A stretch of 64,000 nucleotides of DNA from Hyphomicrobiales bacterium (GCA_041725915.1 JBGRPZ010000007.1:1160-65159); one strand, 5' to 3'; shown: positions 12,899 through 25,512, counted from the first letter of the stretch. A program made the numbers and translations. The notes: generated by a model from the sequence alone, not told the origin.

Positions 12899-14452
12899 TT
12901 AATCAACTTTTCTTTTACGTCTAAATGCTCGCTTCAACCATAATATCAACCCACTCAAAAGAATTAAGAAGGTAAACAGTCCAAATAATGGAATAATCAG
13001 TATATAGAACTTTCCAACTATAGGCTGAAAGATACGTGCTGTATGGGTCTCAAGACATAAATTCCAGAATGACATTCGTGAATTCTCTCTTAGCTCTTTA
13101 GGCATTGTAAGGCTCTTGGCTGCACGAGGAGTCATCCCTATCACACCATCATTATAATCAATATAGAAATCTCCAGATATACTATCTTGTATTACACCAG
13201 AAACAGCATTCTTTCCAATTGGAGGGCCTCCTCTATTGATCACTGGTGGAGCACCTGAAAAATAATCTAACAACACATCATCATAAGGATTCCATTCAAA
13301 CAAACCAGAGAAAGAACCTACAAGGTAATGCCCTGATGGACTATCTTCCATCACATTAATACCCATAACACTAATTGGGGGTTGTAGCTTTGATAAGTCA
13401 GGAACATCATTGAATGCAGTATCTACAGTATATATACCTTCAATAGTTCCTACTAGAACCTTATTTCTTTTCTTATCGAAATGTACTGCTCTGATAATAT
13501 CAAAATATGGGTTGGGTTGGTCAAGATGTGTACCTGCTATCTTTGAAACTCTTGAACTGGCTATTGGTATAAGTAAAGGAGGACGTAAGAACATTCCCGT
13601 TATAGTTATAATCATAAGAAAGATTACAACCCAAATACCTACCTTCAGATGATACTTATGATGCCATTTATATCTCTTTGACAACTTCTTTTTCTTCTCT
13701 TTATCTTCTCTTTTCTTTCTTATCCTTTTGGGAATTATCCACATCACAAGACCGCTAATGGCAAAAAAGATCATAAGTAATGCCATTATATCTACAAATA
13801 TCTTTCCTGCGAAACCAAAGATCTCACCACTATGTATCATCCAGAAAGTACGGAAAAGGCTCACCTTGCCATCCAAGTTCTTTGCTGGCAGCAACTCCTC
13901 TTTCACAACAGAATAATCATTACCCTGCTTTGTCATAGTAAAGATATCAGAACGAGTAGCCAACAACAACTTATCATTCAATAAATCCAGATCTACAATT
14001 CTCTCTTCTTTGGTTGGAAGACCGTAATACATCCAATCACTATATAAATCAGGCTTGTAATAAAGACCAAACTCAGTTGCTGCAAACAGCTGATCACCCC
14101 ATCTTACAATATCATATATCTTACGGCCATCAGCTCCAGCACCAAAACCATTATTATAGTCATTAAACTGTGAGAAACTATTATCTGTAAGAAAGCAACC
14201 TTCATTACCATATACCAACATTTGTGTGGAATTCAGGCGCAGACCACCATTCAAAGCACCGAAATTCCAATTGCCCATTGCATATTCCTTTGGCAAAGCC
14301 GAGCGGGGAACATCCCATGATCGTATCCAATCCCTATGATTCATGAATATACCCGACAGAGACCAAATAACTACAAACACTGTCAATACTATAGAAAACC
14401 ATTTATGTATCCAAAGCCACCTTTTCTTCTTTTTCTTCTTTTTCTCACTCAT
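12899..14452 (-). CDS. PepSY-associated TM helix domain membrane protein
   Basis: IHKWFS...SGIFMNH, IHSGEIFG, HLKVG...TGMFL, THTARIF: repeated His-bearing TM motifs. Confidence 0.85.
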   Translation of the reverse strand: MSEKKKKKKKRWLWIHKWFSIVLTVFVVIWSLSGIFMNHRDWIRSWDVPRSALPKEYAMGNWNFGALNGGLRLNSTQMLVYGNEGCFLTDNSFSQFNDYNNGFGAGADGRKIYDIVRWGDQLFAATEFGLYYKPDLYSDWMYYGLPTKEERIVDLDLLNDKLLLATRSDIFTMTKQGNDYSVVKEELLPAKNLDGKVSLFRTFWMIHSGEIFGFAGKIFVDIMALLMIFFAISGLVMWIIPKRIRKKREDKEKKKKLSKRYKWHHKYHLKVGIWVVIFLMIITITGMFLRPPLLIPIASSRVSKIAGTHLDQPNPYFDIIRAVHFDKKRNKVLVGTIEGIYTVDTAFNDVPDLSKLQPPISVMGINVMEDSPSGHYLVGSFSGLFEWNPYDDVLLDYFSGAPPVINRGGPPIGKNAVSGVIQDSISGDFYIDYNDGVIGMTPRAAKSLTMPKELRENSRMSFWNLCLETHTARIFQPIVGKFYILIIPLFGLFTFLILLSGLILWLKRAFRRKRKVD

Positions 14453-14564: not shown

Positions 14565-14660
14565 TTTGTTATAATTCATTTATTTATATACCTTTGTAGC
14601 AACATGCTTACCCCGCTTCCTTCTATGAATAGCGCGCTTAGGGTAAGCCTTTTATTTTTT
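14565..14660 (+). ncRNA. candidate ~55-nt hairpin small RNA with its own promoter
   Basis: TTTG(14565)-N20-TACCTTTG(14589) promoter, then stem GCTTACCC...GGGTAAGC and a plus-strand T-tract. Confidence 0.4.
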
Positions 14661-17600
14661 ATGATTCTACTTCTTGTTTTTCTTCTGTTGTCGTCTTTTT
14701 CTCCTCTATAGAATTTATATAATCCTCTAATAAAATAGCATATTTATTTCTTATCTTCTTTGCCGTTCTTTCCTCTGTTATATCCTTAGGAGCATTCTCG
14801 ATAATATATTCAGCTAATTCATCTGTTATTTCTGTCTCAATAAAAGCACGGATTCTTTCTTTTCTTTTTTCTATTTCTATCTTATCTTTTATATTTAACT
14901 CAAGATCTTTGAATTTATCAAATGCATCTAAAAATATTATTCCTGCTGATCTAAAAAAGACAATTAACCTAAGATTAAAACTTAGATCATTCATTAGTCC
15001 TAGAGGATTAGAACTCTCTAAAATAGAAATATGATTATAATATTTCCCAAATGCAGGAATATAAAAATATCTATGATTATATTCTTCTCTAAAATCAGAC
15101 AAATTCTTTTGAAAAAATATTCTTGGAATATCAAAATCAGAAGTAGGCTTTAATTTAAACTTAACAGCTCTATAACAATTACCTATAGGTATATTATCTT
15201 CTATAGTCATATCTTTCATTAAGAACTCATAAAAGTCTTCAATGTAAAATCCATTTGTTAAAAAATCTTTTAATAAAAGAAAATCTCGTGTGATAATCTT
15301 ACCCTGATTTTCCTCTTCATTTAAAAAAGAATTAAAGACTTCATTGATTGGATACTTATATAAATCAATTTCACCGCTATATTCAATATCTTTGATTTTC
15401 AAATATTTCTTTAGCAGAGAATTATTGACTAAATCTACACATATTACTTCTTCTGAAGAAAACAACTCCTTTAATGATATATCAAATCCAGAATCCTTTT
15501 TATTTAAAAGGATTGGTAGCTTAATATTATTAATCTCATCTTTCGTTAGAGATCCCTTTAAACTCTGATTATTACAATATCTTAATATTAAAGAAATTAA
15601 TCTGAAATACGCTAAATATGATTTAGGAGAAACATTCTCTTTATCATTAGAATATTTTGAGCAAAAAGCATCTGAAATTTTATCTATAACTCCTGAAATA
15701 GATTCGAATACTCTTGAAAAGATCTTTTTAATTAATACTTCATTAACTAATTCTTGCTCTTTTCGTTTTATGGAATTATCTCTTGAGAGTTTCACTATTT
15801 TACCTGAGTCACAATTGTATAAATCCCAAGTAACTGATTGGTGTAATAGATTTTCATATCCTCTTCCACCAGATTGCTTAAAAACACTAACCCCTTTAAG
15901 CCTCAATCTTAAATCACCATATTCATTGTGTTTTTCCATTATAAAAATTGATACTTTCGATCCAAAGAACTCAGTTTCTTCTATTTTTATTCTAAAAGTA
16001 TATAAGTCTCTCCCTCCTGTTCTTTGCTCCTTCTTTATATAAATCTCATATTTATTTCTAAAATCAGACCCAAAGAAACCTGAGTAAATTAATTCATCAT
16101 TTATATCATATTCTTGATGATATAAAAAAGTTTCTGGATCCACTCCTTTCTTTGGAAATTTAACATGATCAACTAATTCACTATATCTTCTTTTCAGTCC
16201 AAAAAATGAATATAAAACATCATTATCTTCAGGTAACACCTCTGTTAATGTTTTCTTAGAGATTAGCTCATCACCTGTCTTCTCTTTATACTCATCAGGT
16301 TTTAGAAGAATTTCGATTCTAGTTCCTCTTTCCATATTAGGAACATTTTCAGTAATACTGGAATACTCCCCTTTACTTGCCGATTTAAATACAATTTCTT
16401 TAGCTTTTTCTTTCTCTGTTTTGGTTTGTATTTTAAACTCATTAGCTACAAGAAATATCGATTGTAAACCAACGCCAAAATCACCTGTAGGTTGAAGAAA
16501 GTATGGGAGTTCACTCTTTATATCCTGAAAATCTTTATCCTTTCTCCTACTTTCACCAACTTTAAAGATCATTCTCTTTAATGTTTCTGTGCTTATACCA
16601 TGCCCTCTATCTTCTAATTGAATAAGAATTCCTTCTCCTTTTTCACCCTTGTTCTTATAATCAATATGAAATTTAATAGGATAATTATCATATACTTCTT
16701 GGGGAATATCTTCAGGAAAAGTAATAAGTTGATACAATTCCTTTCCTTCATCTAATTCTTTTTGTAGGTACTCAATTCTTTCCTGTTCTCCCTCCTTCTT
16801 TTCCATCAAAAGATATTTTTGAATAATAGAATTATATCTATTATCCTTTATATCATACCACAATTGCAATTTAGTTGCATCCAGAGCATTTTGCACAATT
16901 TCTCGTAAAAACACTTTATCTGGTTCATCATAAATTGCACCTCCTTCAAGCATTTCAAATATTTTCTTTTGTGGAATATCAAAGCGTAAGTTTTGTAACT
17001 CAGAATCGGCATCAACACCTTTAAATTTTACAACAATTTTATCTTTTCTAATATTCGGACAAGTTCCTTTCAGATCAAATGGAGCTATATCGTTCTTCCA
17101 ATAATCCTTTAACTCTGTTCTTTCTTTTAGAATTAATTCTCGCCAATTCATAGCCTCACGAAATATTAGATCACTTGGACAATTCCAGGTAATCTCAATA
17201 CTATCCGGACAAATTAAAATATGTTCTACAGATGCATGTTTTCCTTCATGAGCCACTGAAGTATCAGGAATAGTATTAAGAGTTGCTATTTGAAATGGGT
17301 TAAACCTTTTATCGTCTGCATCCAATAAATCACCTAATCGAAGCATCGCTGCAATAAAACGAGGATGGCATAAATCATTATCATAACCACTCTGCTTATA
17401 TTGAAGATTAGACAACAACTTATCATAGTCATAACCATGAGCAGCTACAATCTCAGCAATCATCTTGGAGAAACGATCAGGTAAGAAATTTAAATTAAAC
17501 TGATTCATCAATTTTTGAAAGATATGGTCTGAAGAAGCTGTAATATATTCCTTACTCCTTTGTGCATGCCCCCTTCTAAAATAATCAGCTGTTATTAGAA

Positions 17601-18093
17601 TCATTGCATTCTTTATATCCAATGACCATAGTTCCTCAATCTTAAAGCTATCATCAACTTTTTCTCCCAATAGCTTTTTATTATAATTCAATATTAATTT
17701 GGCTGCATCTTTTAGTCCATTATCAGAACTTTCTTTAATTATATCTTCACAAAATTGAATCAATTGCCCACCCTTCCATTCCTCTGCAATAAATTGATGC
17801 AATACAACCATTCCAATATCATGAAGGTAAGCACTCATTAAAATAAGAAAAGAGTCTGTAGGAGAAAGCTTCTCAATTCCCTCTTTTCCTAATACTCCCT
17901 CTATTGATTTCACTATAGCTCTGGAATGGCTGGCTCCATGTTTGCTATAATGAGGAAAGTTATTTGTAATTGTATCTAATGCATCAGGGAGGTGATCCTT
18001 GTTTAATTTCCATATAGAATATAAAACTTTAAAATTAGGATAGGTAGTGCAAATCTTCTCAAGATGCAACTCAATAGTATAATTTTCAAACAT
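14659..18093 (-). CDS. HD-domain (HD-CE-like) + Hsp90-like GHKL ATPase fusion protein, putative conflict/defence effector
   Basis: HYSKHGASHS, AYLHDIGM, RLGDLLD; GHKL motifs LREIVQNALDA, EDRGHG, GDFGVGLQS, GTRI. Confidence 0.8.
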   Translation of the reverse strand: MFENYTIELHLEKICTTYPNFKVLYSIWKLNKDHLPDALDTITNNFPHYSKHGASHSRAIVKSIEGVLGKEGIEKLSPTDSFLILMSAYLHDIGMVVLHQFIAEEWKGGQLIQFCEDIIKESSDNGLKDAAKLILNYNKKLLGEKVDDSFKIEELWSLDIKNAMILITADYFRRGHAQRSKEYITASSDHIFQKLMNQFNLNFLPDRFSKMIAEIVAAHGYDYDKLLSNLQYKQSGYDNDLCHPRFIAAMLRLGDLLDADDKRFNPFQIATLNTIPDTSVAHEGKHASVEHILICPDSIEITWNCPSDLIFREAMNWRELILKERTELKDYWKNDIAPFDLKGTCPNIRKDKIVVKFKGVDADSELQNLRFDIPQKKIFEMLEGGAIYDEPDKVFLREIVQNALDATKLQLWYDIKDNRYNSIIQKYLLMEKKEGEQERIEYLQKELDEGKELYQLITFPEDIPQEVYDNYPIKFHIDYKNKGEKGEGILIQLEDRGHGISTETLKRMIFKVGESRRKDKDFQDIKSELPYFLQPTGDFGVGLQSIFLVANEFKIQTKTEKEKAKEIVFKSASKGEYSSITENVPNMERGTRIEILLKPDEYKEKTGDELISKKTLTEVLPEDNDVLYSFFGLKRRYSELVDHVKFPKKGVDPETFLYHQEYDINDELIYSGFFGSDFRNKYEIYIKKEQRTGGRDLYTFRIKIEETEFFGSKVSIFIMEKHNEYGDLRLRLKGVSVFKQSGGRGYENLLHQSVTWDLYNCDSGKIVKLSRDNSIKRKEQELVNEVLIKKIFSRVFESISGVIDKISDAFCSKYSNDKENVSPKSYLAYFRLISLILRYCNNQSLKGSLTKDEINNIKLPILLNKKDSGFDISLKELFSSEEVICVDLVNNSLLKKYLKIKDIEYSGEIDLYKYPINEVFNSFLNEEENQGKIITRDFLLLKDFLTNGFYIEDFYEFLMKDMTIEDNIPIGNCYRAVKFKLKPTSDFDIPRIFFQKNLSDFREEYNHRYFYIPAFGKYYNHISILESSNPLGLMNDLSFNLRLIVFFRSAGIIFLDAFDKFKDLELNIKDKIEIEKRKERIRAFIETEITDELAEYIIENAPKDITEERTAKKIRNKYAILLEDYINSIEEKKTTTEEKQEVES

Positions 18094-18242
18094 AAAATAA
18101 CTGACTTAATAAAAAAGAAAGCAATTTACAAATAAAGATCTTATAAATTACATCTATACACTAACCTCTAATAACCAAAAAAAAGGCTCCACAAAAATGC
18201 AGAGCCTTATAGTATCTTAACAATATTCCAGAATGAAATCTC

Positions 18243-18491
18243 TTAATACCCCTCTCCTGCTGCCATAATATTAGCAGGATCGAAAGCATGGCAAGGAGTA
18301 ACACCATGTACCATATCACACTTTGGGCAGTGAGTTTCAAATCTATCCATAGTCATTAACTGGCCACAACCATGACAATTGATCTCGAGAGGCATAGGCA
18401 TCATCTGGTCATTAAAACCCATACTACGTATCTTGTCTACTATCTGCTTACCATTCTCAAAACTTCCTGCACATCCATCATGAGGGTTCAT
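18243..18491 (-). CDS. small Cys/His-rich zinc-ribbon-like protein
   Basis: HDGC, CHGC, CPKC, TPCH; last gene of the hcp cluster, followed by a hairpin. Confidence 0.75.
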   Translation of the reverse strand: MNPHDGCAGSFENGKQIVDKIRSMGFNDQMMPMPLEINCHGCGQLMTMDRFETHCPKCDMVHGVTPCHAFDPANIMAAGEGY

Positions 18492-18519
18492 ACTCTTTTC
18501 CTTTCTTGTTTATTTCTAT

Positions 18520-19533
18520 TTATATATCTCTCAAGCTCTCACCACTACGTAAAAGCCCTCTCATATTTTGCAAATACTTATCTGTTTCTTCCAGCTTCGA
18601 TAACAAAGCCTTTTCTTCTTCTGAGGTTTCAATTACTTTATGAATACCTCCATTCTTTATAACGATCCTCCTATCACCCATTAGTGCAAGAATAGGGTCA
18701 TGAGTCGCCATAAGAACAATCTTCTCTTCTCCTGTAAGTAGCTCCAGTGCTTTCTTACGGTCAATACCTGCATTCTCTATCTCATCAATCAATATGATTG
18801 GCGATTTACTCAAAATGGCAGTATCAGCAATCATCAAAGCACGAGATTGTCCACCACTAAGGCTTGTAATCGGACGATCAGCGGCAAAACTCTCTCCCGC
18901 AAGGGCATTAGCAGCTTCTATGATCTTCTCAACAACAAGCTCACGATTTTCTACAAGTCGACTTTCTGCATGCAATTCAAGGAATTCCTCTACAGTAAGA
19001 TCCATCACAAAGTTCATATTCTGTGACAACTGAGCAACCAGCTTATGAGCAGAAGAAAACCTCCATTTCGAATCAGGCTTTTCACCATTGATCAATATCG
19101 TTCTGGATGTAGGGGTATCTTTTTGTGCTACCCATTCAATATCACCCAAAAGACGACTTTTGCCCGAGCCTGTAGGCCCTACAATACAAATGATCTCACT
19201 CTGTTTCACTTCCAGTTTATCAAAAGCTTCAGGATTTCCTGACTTATCAGTTCCGGGAAGAATAGACACAGATCTCACCTTGCTATTGTCATCTTCACCA
19301 ATAAACGACAACATTTGGTTGATAAACTCTACCAACGATGCAATAACCTGATCATTATCTATAGCTTTATCTTCTCTTTCTTCTTCTGAAATAGCTTCCA
19401 GAACCTCAACAGTTGTTTTTTCCTCATTACCATCAAGTTCTATAGTACTCCCTTGAAAGAATGATAATAGAAACGGATATCTTCTTACTAATACACCCAG
19501 CTTCTCATTTATTACTTTATCCTTGCTGATCAT
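18520..19533 (-). CDS. ABC-type ATPase with extra N-terminal domain
   Basis: GPTGSGKS, LSGGQ, ILIDE, ATHD; overlaps the upstream GTPase gene. Confidence 0.88.
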   Translation of the reverse strand: MISKDKVINEKLGVLVRRYPFLLSFFQGSTIELDGNEEKTTVEVLEAISEEEREDKAIDNDQVIASLVEFINQMLSFIGEDDNSKVRSVSILPGTDKSGNPEAFDKLEVKQSEIICIVGPTGSGKSRLLGDIEWVAQKDTPTSRTILINGEKPDSKWRFSSAHKLVAQLSQNMNFVMDLTVEEFLELHAESRLVENRELVVEKIIEAANALAGESFAADRPITSLSGGQSRALMIADTAILSKSPIILIDEIENAGIDRKKALELLTGEEKIVLMATHDPILALMGDRRIVIKNGGIHKVIETSEEEKALLSKLEETDKYLQNMRGLLRSGESLRDI

Positions 19534-20227
19534 CCTTATCGTCTATTTTCATTTTACGAACATTTCCCATCTGATATGATTCTCCTATTCTGGTCTCTCC
19601 CAAGCAATATGAACAAAGAGCCGAAGGCATAGGGAATCTTAACTTTTCACCCTGAAGTGTTTTTACTTCTTTATTATCATCATACATCAATGTAGTCAAT
19701 TCATATGCCCCCTGACCAGTAAGTCCATTGACATGAAGAATGGCTGCCGATGGGTTTACTATATTGACTTTAGAAGCAAATACTTCTCTTTCTGCCTGAG
19801 AAACAATATCCCCTTTGGTAATCACACAAATATCAGCAGTCTTCAACATAGGGCCAATTTTCTTAGGTGTATTGATACCACTAAGGTTATCAATCACACA
19901 TACAGCCAATATATTCTTGATATAAGGAGAACACCGATTACACAGCCCTGCACTCTCTGTTATCAATAAATCTAAGCCCTCTTTAATTCCCCATTGAGTC
20001 ACTTCCTCGATATTAGATACAAAATAATGATCAGGACAAAGCGAGCCCGAAAGCCCCTTTTTCACCTTTACACCTGCTTTCTCATACAAGACATCATCAT
20101 CTGTATGTAAACAGTCAAACTTTACAACACCTACATTCAACCCACGAGACTTAAATGACTCAATAGTCTTTAATATTACCGAGGTCTTACCAGACGACGG
20201 AGGCCCTGAAACAGTGACTAGATTCAT
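19517..20227 (-). CDS. HypB/UreG/CobW-like (G3E) metal-binding GTPase
   Basis: GPPSSGKT, LCPDH, ESAGLCNRC, TKGD, C-terminal CSYC. Confidence 0.85.
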   Translation of the reverse strand: MNLVTVSGPPSSGKTSVILKTIESFKSRGLNVGVVKFDCLHTDDDVLYEKAGVKVKKGLSGSLCPDHYFVSNIEEVTQWGIKEGLDLLITESAGLCNRCSPYIKNILAVCVIDNLSGINTPKKIGPMLKTADICVITKGDIVSQAEREVFASKVNIVNPSAAILHVNGLTGQGAYELTTLMYDDNKEVKTLQGEKLRFPMPSALCSYCLGETRIGESYQMGNVRKMKIDDKDDQQG

Positions 20228-20363
20228 ATATCTATTGTTTTTTATTCTATTCCTTTACTATAACTCACCTATAAGCTCACTCATATATCATCAATAAATA
20301 AACGACATTATAGCCATTTGTCAGAAATATAAAATGAACTGTACTTAATGTGAAAATATCAAC

Positions 20364-21593
20364 TTAGAGATCTGCACCTCTATTGAATGCCTTTTCACAA
20401 TGATCAACCAGAGTTTGTATATCATTTTCATATACATAATCCCAACCCAACCATAGGTATTTATTTTCCTCAGGAACTCTATTATCAACTTCAGGATGAG
20501 TAGAAGGAAATAAGCCCTGATGTGCCAGTAATTCACCTACTTTTTTAGAAGCCAAGAAGTCAATTACAGGCTGTAAGTTCTTATTTGTATCACTTTTTGT
20601 CAACATAAAAATAGGACTGATAATAGCACCATCAGAAGGCCATACAGCAGCCATAGTACCCCCTTCTTTCACCATCTTAGTGAAGAAATAAGGCATAATA
20701 GTCACCGCAGGTTTATCACCTTGCTTTTTGTGTGAACGAACCATTTGTGAAGGATGCATATCAGTAAGAAGAGAACGACCCAGTTTTTCCAAAGCTTTCT
20801 CACCATACAAGCGATACAGAGAAAGGAGAATAGCATTAAATAAATCAAAGTCGCCAATAGGAAGGCTAACACTCTTTTCAAACTCAGGACTCAAAATATC
20901 TTCCCAAGACTGAGGGACTTTACGCCCATTCAATTCATTCTTATTCACAAGAAAGACAGCCGGAACAACACCTATAATACTATAGTGACCTGAAGGATCT
21001 TTCAGTGAAACATAATCATTATCAAAATCTTTATTCAAACGGTCATAAGATACACGATCAGCAAAAACATCATCTTTCTTGAAACGTCCCATCTTCTTTT
21101 CATCAAAGAACATATCAAAGCCTGCTGAAAGATATACATCTGCAAGATCATTTTTAGTAGCTTCAGGAGCCCAGTCATCTCTAATCCAATCTACACCCAT
21201 AGAAGCCGCCTGAAGTTCATACTTTATATCAGTACCATCAGTAGCAAGTTTCTCAGCAAAAGCCTCCATTTGTTCCGTCAATGGAATACGAATAGGACAA
21301 GGCAACAAGCCTTTAACTAGAATTCCGGAATCACCATTACCAAAAGAAGATGAGGCTTCAGCTTTATTTCTCTCCTGCTCGATCGTTTCTTCAAGAAGTA
21401 CAGAGAAAGACTTCATATCTATCTGACGGAAATTCAATGCTACTTCCAGTGTAATATTAGCACCAAATAACTCTCTCTTTTCAGGGTCATCCATTTGAGG
21501 AAAGCCATTAGCTTTGAATACCCTTATAGTTTCAGGGTATTTATTTGTAATGGTTAATAGTGTATCGTTTGAATCAAAATATTTTCCTGACAT
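20364..21593 (-). CDS. DUF1858-like domain + ABC substrate-binding-fold protein, no signal peptide
   Basis: N-terminal KYPETIRVFKANGF; LPCP; SBP-like PQSWEDIL and VWPSDGAIISP. Confidence 0.75.
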   Translation of the reverse strand: MSGKYFDSNDTLLTITNKYPETIRVFKANGFPQMDDPEKRELFGANITLEVALNFRQIDMKSFSVLLEETIEQERNKAEASSSFGNGDSGILVKGLLPCPIRIPLTEQMEAFAEKLATDGTDIKYELQAASMGVDWIRDDWAPEATKNDLADVYLSAGFDMFFDEKKMGRFKKDDVFADRVSYDRLNKDFDNDYVSLKDPSGHYSIIGVVPAVFLVNKNELNGRKVPQSWEDILSPEFEKSVSLPIGDFDLFNAILLSLYRLYGEKALEKLGRSLLTDMHPSQMVRSHKKQGDKPAVTIMPYFFTKMVKEGGTMAAVWPSDGAIISPIFMLTKSDTNKNLQPVIDFLASKKVGELLAHQGLFPSTHPEVDNRVPEENKYLWLGWDYVYENDIQTLVDHCEKAFNRGADL

Positions 21594-21656
21594 AAATTTT
21601 CTTTCTCTTATTAATATTGGTAAAGGGGCGAAAATAGATTCGCCCCAATTTATATA

Positions 21657-23306
21657 TTAAGCCATAAACATCTTAATGTCATCATCAACCTCACCAATAC
21701 CAGCAATACCAAATGTATCAACAAGAACATTAGCAACATTTGGAGATAAGAACGCAGGTAAGGTAGGTCCTAAGTGGATATTCTTCACGCCAAGTGAAAG
21801 AAGAGCAAGCAGTACAATAACAGCTTTTTGCTCATACCATGCGATATTGTATGCAATAGGAAGATCATTAACATCATTTAGTTCGAATACTTCCTTCAAT
21901 TTCAATGCAATCACTGCAAGAGAATAAGAATCATTACACTGACCAGCATCCAATACACGAGGGATACCACCTATATCACCTAAAGGCAATTTATTGTAAC
22001 GATACTTAGCACAACCAGCAGTAAGAATTATAGTATCTTGAGGTAGTTTAGTTGCAAACTCTTCATAGTAAGAACGATCTTTCATACGGCCATCACAACC
22101 AGCCATAACGAAGAACTTCTTGATAGCACCACTCTTTACAGCATCAACAACTTTGTCAGCAAGAGCGATCACCTGATTATGTGCAAATCCACCTACAATT
22201 TCACCAGTTTCAATTTCTTTTGGAGCTTCACACTTCTTAGCATGTTCAATAACTACAGAGAAGTCTTTTCTTCCACCTTCAGGACGGTCAGCAATATGAG
22301 TATATCCAGGGAAACCAGAAGCACCAGTAGTATATACTTTATCTTGGTAAGATGCATTGTTTCTAGGAGGAACAATACAGTTGGTAGTAAATAAAATAGG
22401 ACCGTTAAAGCTTTCGAATTCTGTTGTCTGCTTCCACCATGCATTACCATAGTTACCAACGAAGTTATCATACTTCTTGAAGAATGGATAGTAGTGAGCA
22501 GGAAGCATTTCACTATGAGTATAAACGTCTACGCCTGTACCTTTTGTCTGTTCAAGTAGATCTTCAAGATCTCTAAGGTCGTGACCACTAATAAGGATAC
22601 CCGGATTATTTTTTACGCCTATGTTAACTGAAGTGATCTCAGGGTTTCCGTATCTATCAGTATGAGCAGCATCAAGTAAAGCCATTACTTCAACACCAAA
22701 CTTACCACATTCCATATTTAATGCAACAAGATCATCTGCAGAAAGAGAATCATCAGTAGTAGCTACTAGAGCTTTATGCATAAATGCGAAAATATCATCT
22801 TTACGGCTACCAAGATTAGAAGCATGTTCTGCATAAGCAGCCAAACCTTTTAAACCATATGTTAAAAGCTCTCTCAATGAGCGTACATCTTCATTCTCTG
22901 TTAATAATATACCTACTTCTATAGCCTTTACAAGTAAGTCATTATCATTAGATGCATTCCATGTTGCACACTCAGGAAGGTTGTTAAGTTCAATACTGTT
23001 ATTTTCAGCCTCTGCCTTAAGCTCATTCCTTAAAGCAAGACCAGCTTTAATTCTTTTTACAAACTCAGCATCATCAAAGTTAGCATTCGTAATTGTGGTG
23101 AATAAACCTTCCATCACAAAAGTATCTACCTTGTCAGAAGTAATCCCCTTTTCTCTCAATTTCTGAGAATATACAGAGATACCTTTAAGTACATACATTA
23201 ATAAATCCTGAAGATTACTTACATCTTCATTTTTACCACAAACGCCTTTTATAGTACAGCCAGTTCCTTTAGCGGCTTCCTGACATTGAAAACAAAACAT
23301 GCTCAT
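21657..23306 (-). CDS. hcp: hybrid cluster protein (hydroxylamine/NO reductase)
   Basis: MFCFQCQE...[40 protein letters not shown]. Confidence 0.97.
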
Positions 23307-23362
23307 TTCTTATTATTTTTTGATCTTTTATTCTTTGTTACTTATATCTGAAACGCTTATTT

Positions 23363-23430
23363 AAGTATTTCGATACGCAAATTAAACAATAGTTTCTGTA
23401 ATAAACAAGAAAAAAGGTATCGTATTACCT
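23363..23430. promoter_or_regulatory. two candidate Rrf2 operators upstream of hcp
   Basis: AAGTAT-TTCG-ATACGC (23363) and AGGTAT-CGTA-TTACCT (23415). Confidence 0.55.
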
Positions 23431-23507
23431 GAATAGGATTATTTACATACGATCTAAACAATAAGAAAAGGTGAAAAAAAAACGGGAACATCCCGTTTTA
23501 TAAGCGT

Positions 23508-23906
23508 TTACAAGTACATATCAAGCGATTGCCCTTTCATGTAATCCCGATATTCCATTGTCATCCTACTAGTAACATTATTCATTATACACTTATCAAA
23601 AGGACAAACTTGTTTATCCAAAGGACATGCATGTACTTCTATTTTGCCTTCAATAGCTTCATAAATCTGTAATAAAGTAATCTCATTTGGTTCCTTCTTC
23701 AAGAAAAAGCCTCCAGAAGGACCTCTCAGAGAACTCACCAGATTTTCTTTTACTAAACGCTGAAATACTTTTGCTACATGATGCTTCGAACTAGAAGTGG
23801 CTTCAGCAATATGAGCAACATTCATCATCTCTTGTGATCTTGCCACCAGAATCATTCCATGTAGAGCTATAGAAGCAGCTTCGGATAAAGTGAATATCTT
23901 TGCCAT
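23508..23906 (-). CDS. Rrf2 family transcriptional regulator (3 Cys, probable Fe-S)
   Basis: SLRGPSGGF, ITLLQIYEAIEG, CPLDKQVCPFDKC. Confidence 0.93.
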   Translation of the reverse strand: MAKIFTLSEAASIALHGMILVARSQEMMNVAHIAEATSSSKHHVAKVFQRLVKENLVSSLRGPSGGFFLKKEPNEITLLQIYEAIEGKIEVHACPLDKQVCPFDKCIMNNVTSRMTMEYRDYMKGQSLDMYL

Positions 23907-23915
23907 TTATAATCT

Positions 23916-23989
23916 AGGTATTTAAATACTTATTAACAAATCCTATTTGTGCGTAATAACGGTAAATAAATTAAGATATTGCAATACTT
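23916..23989. promoter_or_regulatory. two candidate Rrf2 autoregulatory operators
   Basis: AGGTAT-TTAA-ATACTT (23916) and AGATAT-TGCA-ATACTT (23974). Confidence 0.55.
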
Positions 23990-24179
23990 AAATTATCGAA
24001 TTGATACATCGGTTGATAATAGAGGGATAGCAATAAATATCATACAACCTCTAACAAAATATAAATGTCAATGTTCTTACAATTTATAGACTGAACAATG
24101 GTTATTTACCTTCGGGCATTTATATTTACCTAATTTTGTCTTAGAGAAAAACAATTAGACGTCATCAAAAACCTTAAAC

Positions 24180-25316
24180 ATGTATTCAGAAATACTACAG
24201 CAAACAGTAATAATAACTGGATTTGTACTTGTCATGATGCTACTAATAGAGTATCTGAATGTGCAGTCCAGTGGGAAATGGATAAATGGACTCAAGAAAA
24301 AAAGTAAGATTCAATCAGTATTGGGGGTCATTTTAGGAGCAGCACCAGGGTGCTTGGGAACATATACCGCCGTATCTCTGTACTCTCACAAGAACATGGG
24401 TTTCTCAGCATTATTAATGACTATGATCTTAACAACAGGAGATGAAGCTTTCTTCATGCTCTCACTAATTCCAAACACTTTTGTAAAGATTACTATCATA
24501 CTATTAATTATAGGTATAATAGTAAGTATTGCCCTTAGAAAAGTCTTCCAGAGCAAAATGTTTTCAGATACATTAAATCATAATCTTGAGGTACACCATC
24601 ATCATCACTGTGTTTCAACAAAGAGTAATATTATTGACAACTTTAGACGTATAAGCTTTCCAAGAGCCATCTTATTATCAGCCTTAATTATATTCATAAT
24701 AGGATTGAGTACAGGAAGAATACAACACTCTCACACCTTTGCCCCAAACAACACAGAACATACAAGTGCAGAAATACATGAAGGGCATCAGCATAACCAT
24801 GAAGAACACGCTCATTTCGATGAACATGCTCATACAAGTGATGTTCATGAACATGGACAATGGGATTGGTTCAATATCACACTTATATCAGTATGCTTTC
24901 TTGCACTGCTGATTATAGCAACAGTACCAGATCACTTCTTGAATGAACACTTATGGGATCACATTATAAAGAAGCATGCTCTAAAGATATTTATATGGTC
25001 ATTAATCATATTATCAGTAATCTTCTTTGCAAGTGAATATATAGATATCCAAAGTTGGGTATCCAACAATTACTTCAAGACATTGATTATAGCCTTACTT
25101 ATAGGTATTATTCCACAATCAGGCCCACATTTGATATTTATAGTGCTCTTTGCTCAGGGAACAGTCCCATTCAGTATTCTGCTTGGAAACTCTATCGTTC
25201 AAGATGGTCATGGTGCTTTACCCCTACTTGCAGAATCTAAAAAGAGTTTCATATTAATAAAAGGTATAAAGTTTGTAATTGCTTTGATAATAGGAATTGT
25301 TTATTATTTCATATAA
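24180..25316 (+). CDS. putative metal transporter (DUF2899 / putative manganese transporter-like) with His-rich loops
   Basis: Multiple TM segments; PGCLG, GDEAF, IPQSGPH, QDGHG; HHHHH and HEGHQHNHEEHAH. Confidence 0.75.
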   Translation: MYSEILQQTVIITGFVLVMMLLIEYLNVQSSGKWINGLKKKSKIQSVLGVILGAAPGCLGTYTAVSLYSHKNMGFSALLMTMILTTGDEAFFMLSLIPNTFVKITIILLIIGIIVSIALRKVFQSKMFSDTLNHNLEVHHHHHCVSTKSNIIDNFRRISFPRAILLSALIIFIIGLSTGRIQHSHTFAPNNTEHTSAEIHEGHQHNHEEHAHFDEHAHTSDVHEHGQWDWFNITLISVCFLALLIIATVPDHFLNEHLWDHIIKKHALKIFIWSLIILSVIFFASEYIDIQSWVSNNYFKTLIIALLIGIIPQSGPHLIFIVLFAQGTVPFSILLGNSIVQDGHGALPLLAESKKSFILIKGIKFVIALIIGIVYYFI

Positions 25317-25512
25317 ACCACTTATGAAGGGTACAGTTAGCCTGTACTCTTCTTTCTTCAATGTTTCTAACTCATACAAACTAAAACATCAATATTCAAT
25401 CTCTTATCGTAAATAAAATCACCTCTGACACAAGCTTAGATATAACTCTATCGTTTTCAGAATAAAACTATTATCTTTATTATATCAATATTCCATAGCT
25501 AAAATATTTGTT

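Follow-up and report, generated by a model that had tools for sequence, protein, structure and literature searches.

A 64,000-nucleotide stretch of DNA from a Hyphomicrobiales bacterium (GCA_041725915.1 JBGRPZ010000007.1:1160-65159; hereafter the window, with coordinates counted from its first letter) carries, directly downstream of hcp, the gene for the hybrid cluster protein, four genes that form a conserved cassette. The cassette is a nucleoside triphosphatase (NTPase) metallochaperone-type system whose architecture has no studied precedent and which bears no curated family name. Its regulatory sites predict that it is co-regulated with hcp under nitric oxide (NO)-responsive regulators. We propose, with our confidence evenly balanced, that the operon specifies a cytoplasmic module for metal chaperoning or repair, induced by NO and powered by nucleotides, under the control of Rrf2 here and of HcpR2 in other lineages.

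Four genes behind hcp

All five genes lie on the minus strand. The first, hcp (21657-23306), encodes the 549-amino-acid, NO-detoxifying hybrid cluster protein/hydroxylamine reductase (a clear equivalog by NF003658, with 871.9 bits where 367 are needed; Prismane, 611.7 bits) and is the sole gene of the Prismane/carbon monoxide dehydrogenase (CODH) family in the window's own genome. It is followed after 63 nt by the gene for a 409-amino-acid protein with the Pfam domains DUF1858 and SBP_bac_6 (20364-21593), here called the SBP-like protein (SBP, solute-binding protein); after a further 136 nt by the gene for a 236-amino-acid, Cys-rich G3E GTPase (19517-20227; cobW/HypB/UreG family, 45.3 bits); by the gene, overlapping the last by 17 nt, for a 337-amino-acid ATP-binding cassette (ABC) ATPase with a helical N-domain (residues 1-85) and one nucleotide-binding domain (NBD), identified from Pfam and from its motifs (18520-19533); and, 28 nt further on, by the gene for a small Cys-rich zinc-ribbon protein of 82 amino acids, assigned from an alignment of its homologues (18243-18491). 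The cassette is single-copy in its genome.

The four downstream proteins reached no curated NCBIfam cut-off (for the ABC ATPase, among the best 25 matches listed), and PDB sequence searches gave distant matches only. We found no description of the cassette in the full-text literature, supplementary tables excepted (among them Table S1 of PMC1274295 and those with RNA-seq data in PMC12915319 and PMC5701242).

The initial annotation of the window had described four co-oriented genes after hcp: an SBP-fold protein with a DUF1858 domain and an LPCP motif but no signal peptide, a Cys-rich G3E GTPase with CPDH, CNRC and CSYC motifs, an ABC ATPase whose gene overlaps that of the GTPase, and a CxxC/CxxC protein, with parts of the HypB/UreG and SufC kinds. 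This description held up: the genes are where it placed them, the families and motifs agree with it, and the motifs listed here are invariant among the homologues, as detailed below.

Gene order is conserved and no permease accompanies the cassette

A scan with one genome per species returned 336 relatives of the SBP-like protein, and the best 80 loci were analyzed. Their names include Bacteroidales (Ancylomarina, Labilibaculum, Marinifilum), Cloacimonadota, Aminicenantes/Acidobacteria, Spirochaetes, Neomarinimicrobiota and Clostridia/Tissierellia. The SBP-like gene is followed by the GTPase gene in 79 of the 80 loci, by the ABC ATPase gene in 77 and by the small gene in 71. The one locus without the GTPase gene is cut off by a contig end, as are all three without the ABC gene and seven of the nine without the small gene; the small gene was truly undetectable in the other two loci (L063 and L073). 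The conservation of this gene order is far beyond chance.

A permease, the component that the initial annotation had said was absent and whose regular presence would have told against it, was found neither inside the operon nor conserved with the cassette in the 80 loci. We clustered 1,131 flanking open reading frames (ORFs) and checked the ten commonest neighbor clusters with Pfam. The only cluster with multiple transmembrane segments was an ABC-2 exporter that has its own ATPase, lies on the opposite strand and is confined to Ancylomarina, Labilibaculum and Marinifilum.

The binding protein likewise shows no sign of export. None of 29 aligned SBP-like homologues has an N-terminal hydrophobic leader, signal peptide or lipobox; all start directly with the DUF1858 domain, and the median number of predicted transmembrane segments is 0 (n=80). 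The SBP-like protein is accordingly predicted to be cytoplasmic. These results bear on the possibility that the genes specify a cryptic ABC importer with its permease gene at another site. The pairing of SBP_bac_6 and ABC_tran domains invites such an assignment, and the fold of the NBD fits importer NBDs (MalK, FbpC) as well as any. Against it stand the cytoplasmic-type N-domain in place of an export signal, the lack of a conserved permease, the G3E GTPase that is always part of the cassette, and a sister triad, described below, in which an FeS-domain protein takes the place of the SBP. We therefore rejected an importer identity, on the grounds of no exported binding protein and no conserved permease, and regard it as highly improbable.

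Regulatory sites link the cassette to hcp

The initial annotation had also tied the module to nitrosative stress. That tie is borne out by linkage to hcp and, more strongly, by regulator sites common to hcp and the cassette. As to linkage, 27 of the 80 loci have hcp in their flanks, just downstream of the small gene in 25 and upstream in two, including L001, the window's nearest relative, which has the window's order. In 55 loci the flanking sequence reaches 2.5 kb or more on either side, and of these 18 have hcp and 23 have rrf2. We also examined 40 carrier genomes (39 in which hcp does not adjoin the cassette, plus that of L001), and 34 of them contain a Prismane-family gene.

In Ancylomarina, Labilibaculum and Marinifilum, the cassette is a promoter unit of its own. 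A TGTAAC-N4-GTTACA box lies about 75 bp 5' of the SBP-like gene and is invariant in all 13 aligned loci from these genera, with one flank mismatch in L005; a TAnnTTTG element lies downstream of it in the 13 loci. The box equals the HcpR2 consensus GTAACnnnnGTTAC as given in the text of PMC1274295, according to which hcp is the only member of the HcpR2 regulon predicted for most Bacteroides and for several other species. We scanned 21 carrier genomes, 17 of them from these three genera, for the exact 16-mer pattern. The 17 genomes hold 34 perfect boxes, of which 16 lie before the cassette (at 60-77 bp), 16 before hcp (at about 130-150 bp) and two inside long ORFs. In these genomes hcp and the cassette are not linked to each other, and theirs are the sole promoters with a perfect box; G305 has a cassette site with one mismatch, and G317 has no detectable hcp. 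Because a reversed-pattern control gave 0-2 sites per genome, it is the placement of the boxes, and not their number, that is telling. Of the other four genomes, two (G301, G337) have no HcpR2 site and two (G323, G329) have sites away from both hcp and the cassette; among the loci of these four, L035, L047 and L070 carry an Rrf2-type site at the cassette and L001 carries one 5' of rrf2.

We did not find the HcpR2 box GTAACnnnnGTTAC in the window, which has Rrf2-type sites instead. To count such sites in the 80 loci, we searched non-coding sequence within 250 bp 5' of ORFs for a GTAYT-N2-ARTAC core with at most one mismatch; the full form of the palindrome is approximately tAGGTATT-N3-GTACCTaa. 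There were 35 occurrences before rrf2, 12 before the SBP-like gene (two of which, in L013 and L015, fall inside the start region and look spurious) and 10 before a cupin gene described below, with at most three before any other cluster.

In the window, an operator-like palindrome, AGTA-N6-TACC (23916-23931; motif match 23917-23930), lies 11 bp 5' of rrf2, and a second conserved block is found farther upstream of that gene (23974-23989); both are conserved in L001. A GGTA-N6-TACC palindrome in the hcp promoter (23416-23429, 110-123 bp before the hcp ATG) is the only match in the window, is likewise conserved in L001, and is followed by a conserved TAATTTG, which we take to be a Bacteroidetes-type -7 box. 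Two inverted repeats, I2 and I3, connect the region upstream of hcp with that upstream of rrf2. Operator scans of the window's own genome used IUPAC motifs only; one pattern, RGTATTNNNNRTACY, was discarded for its wrong spacing and for counts not above control.

The regulator itself (rrf2, 23508-23906, minus strand; 132 amino acids; Pfam Rrf2, 96.7 bits) has three C-terminal Cys residues (C-x6-C-x4-C) and scores above the cut-off of the NCBIfam rrf2 superfamily model (91.3 versus 73.3 bits). It stays under the cut-offs of the equivalogs for NsrR (NF008240, 33.3 bits versus 182), IscR and the SUF regulator. By these features it is likely an iron-sulfur (Fe-S)-sensing repressor.

The shared regulation could be read more narrowly, as that of a dedicated Hcp maturase or repair system in which the four proteins would assemble Hcp's hybrid [4Fe-2S-2O] cluster or restore it. 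There is an analogy in CooC, CooT and CooJ, which serve CODH, a homologue of Hcp. The exclusive pairing of hcp and the cassette as targets of perfect HcpR2 boxes in 17 genomes is in keeping with this idea, as are the adjacency of the two in 27 loci, in two different orders, and the presence of hcp in most carriers. The other 53 loci, however, have no hcp in their flanks, and six of the 40 carriers show no hcp. Conversely, the control genomes of E. coli and B. thetaiotaomicron, both hcp carriers, have Prismane matches and no DUF1858 match, and the Hcp of E. coli is active without such a system. Because hcp carriers exist that lack the cassette, a dedicated role is hard to square with the data, and it is not needed to explain them; we consider it unlikely. 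The initial annotation had suggested maturation or repair of HCP or of other Fe-S proteins under nitrosative stress. The soluble module that it envisaged is supported, and a dedicated HCP role is not supported as it was put, given the flanks of the 80 loci, the separate promoter unit, the hcp carriers without DUF1858 and the rarity of the cassette; the Fe-S part is one that we infer. Our preferred reading remains that of a more general module for metal centers, induced together with Hcp.

The GTPase and the small zinc-ribbon protein

The GTPase is the most conserved member of the cassette, with a mean column identity of 78% and roughly 75-88% identity across phyla. In an alignment of 30 sequences, including a 45%-identical paralogue, C64-P-D-H67, C96 and C99 (CNRC), C110, and C205 and C208 (CSYC) are invariant in all 30, as are the G1 motif GPPSSGKT and the G3 motif ITESAG with its Glu. 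In an alignment to the HypB of M. jannaschii (2hf8), the "C-H" of HypB falls on C64..H67 and its GNLICP loop on GLC96NRC99; we take the aligned HypB residues to be metal ligands. The protein scored 45.8 bits with the curated HypB model (TIGR00073), far short of the 121.2 required, and 24 bits with that for UreG, which requires 204.2. From these comparisons it is assigned to an unnamed subfamily of G3E GTPases, with HypB and UreG as its nearest relatives. There are 6,523 sequence clusters at E <= 1e-10, paralogues included, and their source names are generic: "GTP-binding protein", "Ni2+-binding GTPase..." or "hypothetical protein".

The small protein (mean column identity 62%) has two invariant CxxC motifs, C39xxC42 and C55xxC58, and invariant H4, C7, C67 and H68, in 25 of 25 sequences. 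Most homologues begin with MH(D/E)GC; the window's protein begins with MNPHDGC and that of L001 with MVSHEGC. HypA has an N-terminal MHE motif that is involved in Ni binding. The Pfam HypA model (PF01155) matched over the zinc ribbon only, at 18.1 bits against a cut-off of 28.9, and two of the three best Atlas clusters for the small protein are auto-named HypA.

These likenesses raise the question of whether another metal (Ni, Zn or Co) is delivered or buffered under NO, for example zinc mobilized by NO, or with a small cupin as a non-iron client. The nearest GTPase families, HypB and UreG, handle Ni, and the small protein is HypA-like; a cupin gene is present in 21 of the 80 loci, and a permease gene with a His-rich product, of the ArsP_2 type, is divergent from rrf2 in the window and in L001. 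The cupin and this permease are, on the other hand, lineage-specific. We found no match to [NiFe]-hydrogenase (PF00374) in the window's own genome, which is 95.9% complete, and no CODH; with hcp as the one gene of the Prismane/CODH family, this speaks against a Ni-enzyme client in that genome. The body of the SBP-like protein, moreover, is nearest in fold to ferric-binding proteins. We judge such a role in delivering or buffering another metal to be very unlikely, and turn to the evidence from fold that favors iron within the proposed metallochaperone or repair module.

The SBP-like protein and the ABC ATPase

The SBP-like protein (mean column identity 61%) consists of a DUF1858 domain at residues 9-63 (33.4 bits, cut-off 32.2) and an SBP_bac_6 domain at residues 148-390 (263.6 bits). 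The N-domain matches a solved DUF1858 structure (PDB 2fi0, E 3.3e-5) and contains no Cys. Among the invariant features in the alignment of 29 homologues are the Cys of LPCP (C99), just after the first strand, SAGFDxFF, SLPxxDFDLFN, HPxxMV, MPYFFTKM, D160, H280, Y302 and C399. An AlphaFold2 (AF2) model had a predicted local distance difference test (pLDDT) value of 85.3, and its top Foldseek matches were 6wce, 8c4y, 1si0 and 4r74, with template modeling (TM) scores of 0.63-0.69 on the target. The body fold is closest to those of P5PA, FutA, FbpA and AfuA (E 2e-13 to 1e-11, identity 12-18%).

A cytoplasmic protein of this fold might act as an analogue of RIC/YtfE, binding iron or iron-nitrosyl from damaged clusters, with the NTPases returning the iron and with NO passing to Hcp. 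Besides the ferric-binding fold and the co-regulation with hcp, one could cite the relation of DUF1858 to the ScdA_N domain of RIC, with which it shares a Pfam clan. ScdA_N (PF04405) has no match in the window's own genome and is found in only seven of the 40 carriers, a count that has no matched base rate from non-carriers. The SBP-like protein, however, has no hemerythrin or di-iron domain, its DUF1858 domain is devoid of Cys, and those seven carriers have both systems. Attractive as a RIC-like role is, an analogue in this specific sense seems quite unlikely to us.

The ABC ATPase (mean column identity 66%; AF2 model pLDDT 83.2) has intact Walker A, Q-loop, LSGGQ, Walker B and H-loop motifs. 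Foldseek matched its model equally well to LptB, MalK, MJ0796 and SmsC, and did not separate SufC/SmsC-like proteins from transporter NBDs. The initial annotation had held that the N-domain of this protein resembles that of the SBP-like protein. The two AF2 models do show the same predicted helix pattern; the sequences lend the resemblance weak support. A local hhalign of the two domains gave a probability of 11% (P 0.0028), and two of ten N-terminal ABC fragments matched DUF1858 (E 0.015 and 0.057). A profile of the ABC N-domain searched against 1.84 billion representatives had 93 matches (E <= 0.001), all of them short fragments or of ABC length. Because none has the length of an SBP, HMMER does not link the two domains, and the case for their homology is weak. 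A complex prediction for the ABC ATPase with the SBP-like protein gave a score of 0.12, with a mark of 0.32, and counts neither way.

Proposed function

Because the system has no membrane part and the same regulators as Hcp, we consider cytoplasmic handling or repair of metal centers under NO stress to be probable. GTPases of the HypB/UreG type insert metals, and SufC is an ABC ATPase that acts without a transporter. In the working that we propose, a metal ion would sit at the conserved Cys/His switch site of a HypB/UreG-like GTPase dimer, and the HypA-like zinc-ribbon protein would give or take that ion. The FbpA-like SBP-like protein would serve as a cytoplasmic metal holder, most plausibly for iron or an iron complex, and the ABC ATPase would, like SufC in SufBC2D, supply ATP-driven clamping by which the metal is loaded or stripped. 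Metal centers damaged by NO would be the clients, with Hcp as one candidate client or partner and not the sole one. Iron is the most plausible metal because of the fold nearest to ferric-binding proteins, the NO regulon, and a genome that shows neither a [NiFe]-hydrogenase nor a second Prismane/CODH gene.

Several observations weigh against this proposal. The G4 motif of the GTPase reads TKGD, not NKxD, in 30 of 30 sequences, and for this reason the GTP specificity of the protein is an assumption. Six of the 40 carriers, all metagenome-assembled genomes of 2.4-3.5 Mb, show no hcp. Of 301 genomes sampled from the window's phylum, the window's own is the only one in which the cassette was found; it is therefore not a general need of NO defense. 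Finally, a scan of the window's own genome with RGTAYTNNARTACY found eight places versus five in the control, which is not an enrichment, and none but the rrf2 site immediately precedes a gene. Because the motif is not above control genome-wide, Rrf2 control in the window rests on position and on conservation in L001.

The recovery of NO-damaged metal centers in anaerobes is understood for only a few proteins, RIC/YtfE among them. The cassette is a sharply defined and experimentally reachable candidate, because in 17 genomes it has the sole promoter besides that of hcp with a perfect HcpR2 box and because several carriers are in culture. Its characterization could add a fifth functional subfamily of G3E metallochaperones, and could provide the first case of an SBP-fold protein and an ABC ATPase working wholly inside the cytoplasm.

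A sister system on methanogen-like contigs

One of the 80 loci also holds a paralogous set of genes (L070:13131-16337, minus strand): an ABC ATPase that lacks the N-domain, a Cys-rich G3E GTPase that shares 45-46% identity and the Cys/His set with that of the cassette, a 219-amino-acid FeS-domain (PF04060) protein and a PHO4-family permease. When metagenomes were scanned with the FeS protein, 284 relatives were found, and we clustered the ORFs of the best 80 loci (L084-L163). The GTPase cluster was present in 77, the FeS protein in 77 and the ABC ATPase in 62, with many misses at contig ends; the permease accompanied the triad in only two. The contigs appear to be from methanogen-type archaea because the neighboring genes include ComA, CofE-like, TFIIE-alpha, TfuA, FtsZ and Spt5, and in the Atlas the FeS protein is found mainly in Methanobacteriota. 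The triad carries no curated names, and no hcp was seen in its 80 loci.

In the sister system, absence of the DUF1858-SBP protein is accompanied by an ABC ATPase that has no N-domain. This fits a scheme in which the two N-domains work together, and is no proof of it. More broadly, and tentatively, since we doubt it more than we believe it, the pairing of a soluble ABC ATPase with a Cys-rich G3E GTPase might be the core of unrecognized, ancient dual-NTPase metallocenter machines with at least two architectures: a bacterial one with an FbpA-like binder and a HypA-like protein in the NO/Hcp regulon, and an archaeal one with an FeS-domain protein instead. Should this be so, iron-based centers would be built or rescued by a new pathway, distinct from ISC, SUF, NIF, SMS, Hyp and Ure.

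Transcription units and neighboring genes

The spacer between rrf2 and hcp is 201 nt long and contains a terminator-like hairpin with a T-run 3' of rrf2 (23479-23499, minus strand). A second terminator-like hairpin, with an 11-pair stem and a T-run, marks the 3' end of the operon (18183-18208, minus strand). From these positions, the likely transcription units are rrf2 alone and hcp with the four genes. A GC-rich hairpin with an 8-bp stem in the spacer between hcp and the SBP-like gene (21625-21646) might serve as a partial terminator or else in processing or stability, and could reduce read-through into the four accessory genes. An Rfam scan of 17500-25500 gave no match near the gathering score.

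Divergent from rrf2 is the gene for the ArsP_2-type ("arsenic efflux"-type) permease (24180-25316, plus strand), with 10 transmembrane segments and a long His-rich loop; the two genes share a 273-bp region with operator-like sites. Such a permease is otherwise found beside the cassette only in L001 (54.9% identity). Directly 3' of the operon terminator lies a gene for a 1144-amino-acid protein (14659-18093, minus strand) that has an HD-CE domain (153.6 bits) together with a region resembling HSP90/HATPase_c_3; it is probably unrelated to the operon and perhaps belongs to a conflict system. Beyond it is a gene for a 517-amino-acid membrane protein (12899-14452, minus strand) with a run of nine Lys right after MSE.

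Among the 80 loci, the lineage-specific neighbors are the small cupin, a CRP/FNR regulator and a flavodiiron protein. The cupin (Cupin_2, about 113 amino acids) is an optional fifth member of the cassette, encoded inside or before it. Its gene lies between rrf2 and the SBP-like gene in L016, L020, L033, L059 and others, often with an Rrf2-type operator of its own, and between the SBP-like gene and the GTPase gene in L070 (9297-9632). In L002-L032, from Ancylomarina, Labilibaculum and Marinifilum, genes for the CRP/FNR regulator and the flavodiiron protein (ODP plus flavodoxin) recur 1-7.7 kb 5' of the cassette; the regulator is possibly HcpR2 itself. The ABC-2 exporter pair and a protein with a type IX secretion (T9SS) signal recur in the same region.

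Comparison with known systems

The GTPase shares Pfam family PF02492 with the COG0523, CobW, Nha3 and ZigA GTPases. It differs from them in lacking both the C-terminal COG0523 domain and the CxCC motif, which was absent from the alignment of 30 sequences and which, according to the definition given in PMC9164220, defines COG0523.

Like SufC in SufBC2D and SmsC in SMS, the ABC ATPase is a soluble protein with a single NBD and no membrane partner. SmsC (9h7x, 9h78) was among its Foldseek matches, no better than LptB or MalK. Unlike SufC and SmsC, it has no partners of the SufB, SufD or SmsB type; it has an extra helical N-domain and an SBP-fold partner.

The SBP-like protein has the two-lobe fold of the ferric-binding proteins FbpA, FutA and AfuA and of P5PA (cluster D periplasmic binding proteins), to which it is only distantly similar in sequence, at the identities given above. 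With RIC/YtfE/ScdA, a member of the NO regulon alongside Hcp, it has in common an N-terminal domain of the ScdA_N/DUF1858 kind. It differs in consisting only of DUF1858 and SBP_bac_6, with ScdA_N unmatched and the hemerythrin-like di-iron domain missing, and the cassette has two NTPases where RIC has none.

Close parallels are with HypA/HypB, which deliver Ni to [NiFe]-hydrogenase, and with UreE/UreG, which serve urease. The G-domain of the cassette GTPase is of the same G3E kind, with the invariant Glu in G3, and its association with a small CxxC...CxxC protein, whose N-terminus is mostly MH(D/E)GC, resembles the pairing of HypB with HypA. The cassette GTPase departs from HypB and UreG in its extra invariant C99, C110, C205 and C208 and its TKGD motif, and the small protein, at 82 amino acids, falls under the Pfam cut-off for HypA. 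In further contrast to the Hyp and Ure systems, and in a genome where no hydrogenase was found, the GTPase always comes with an ABC ATPase and is predicted to be regulated by NO sensors.

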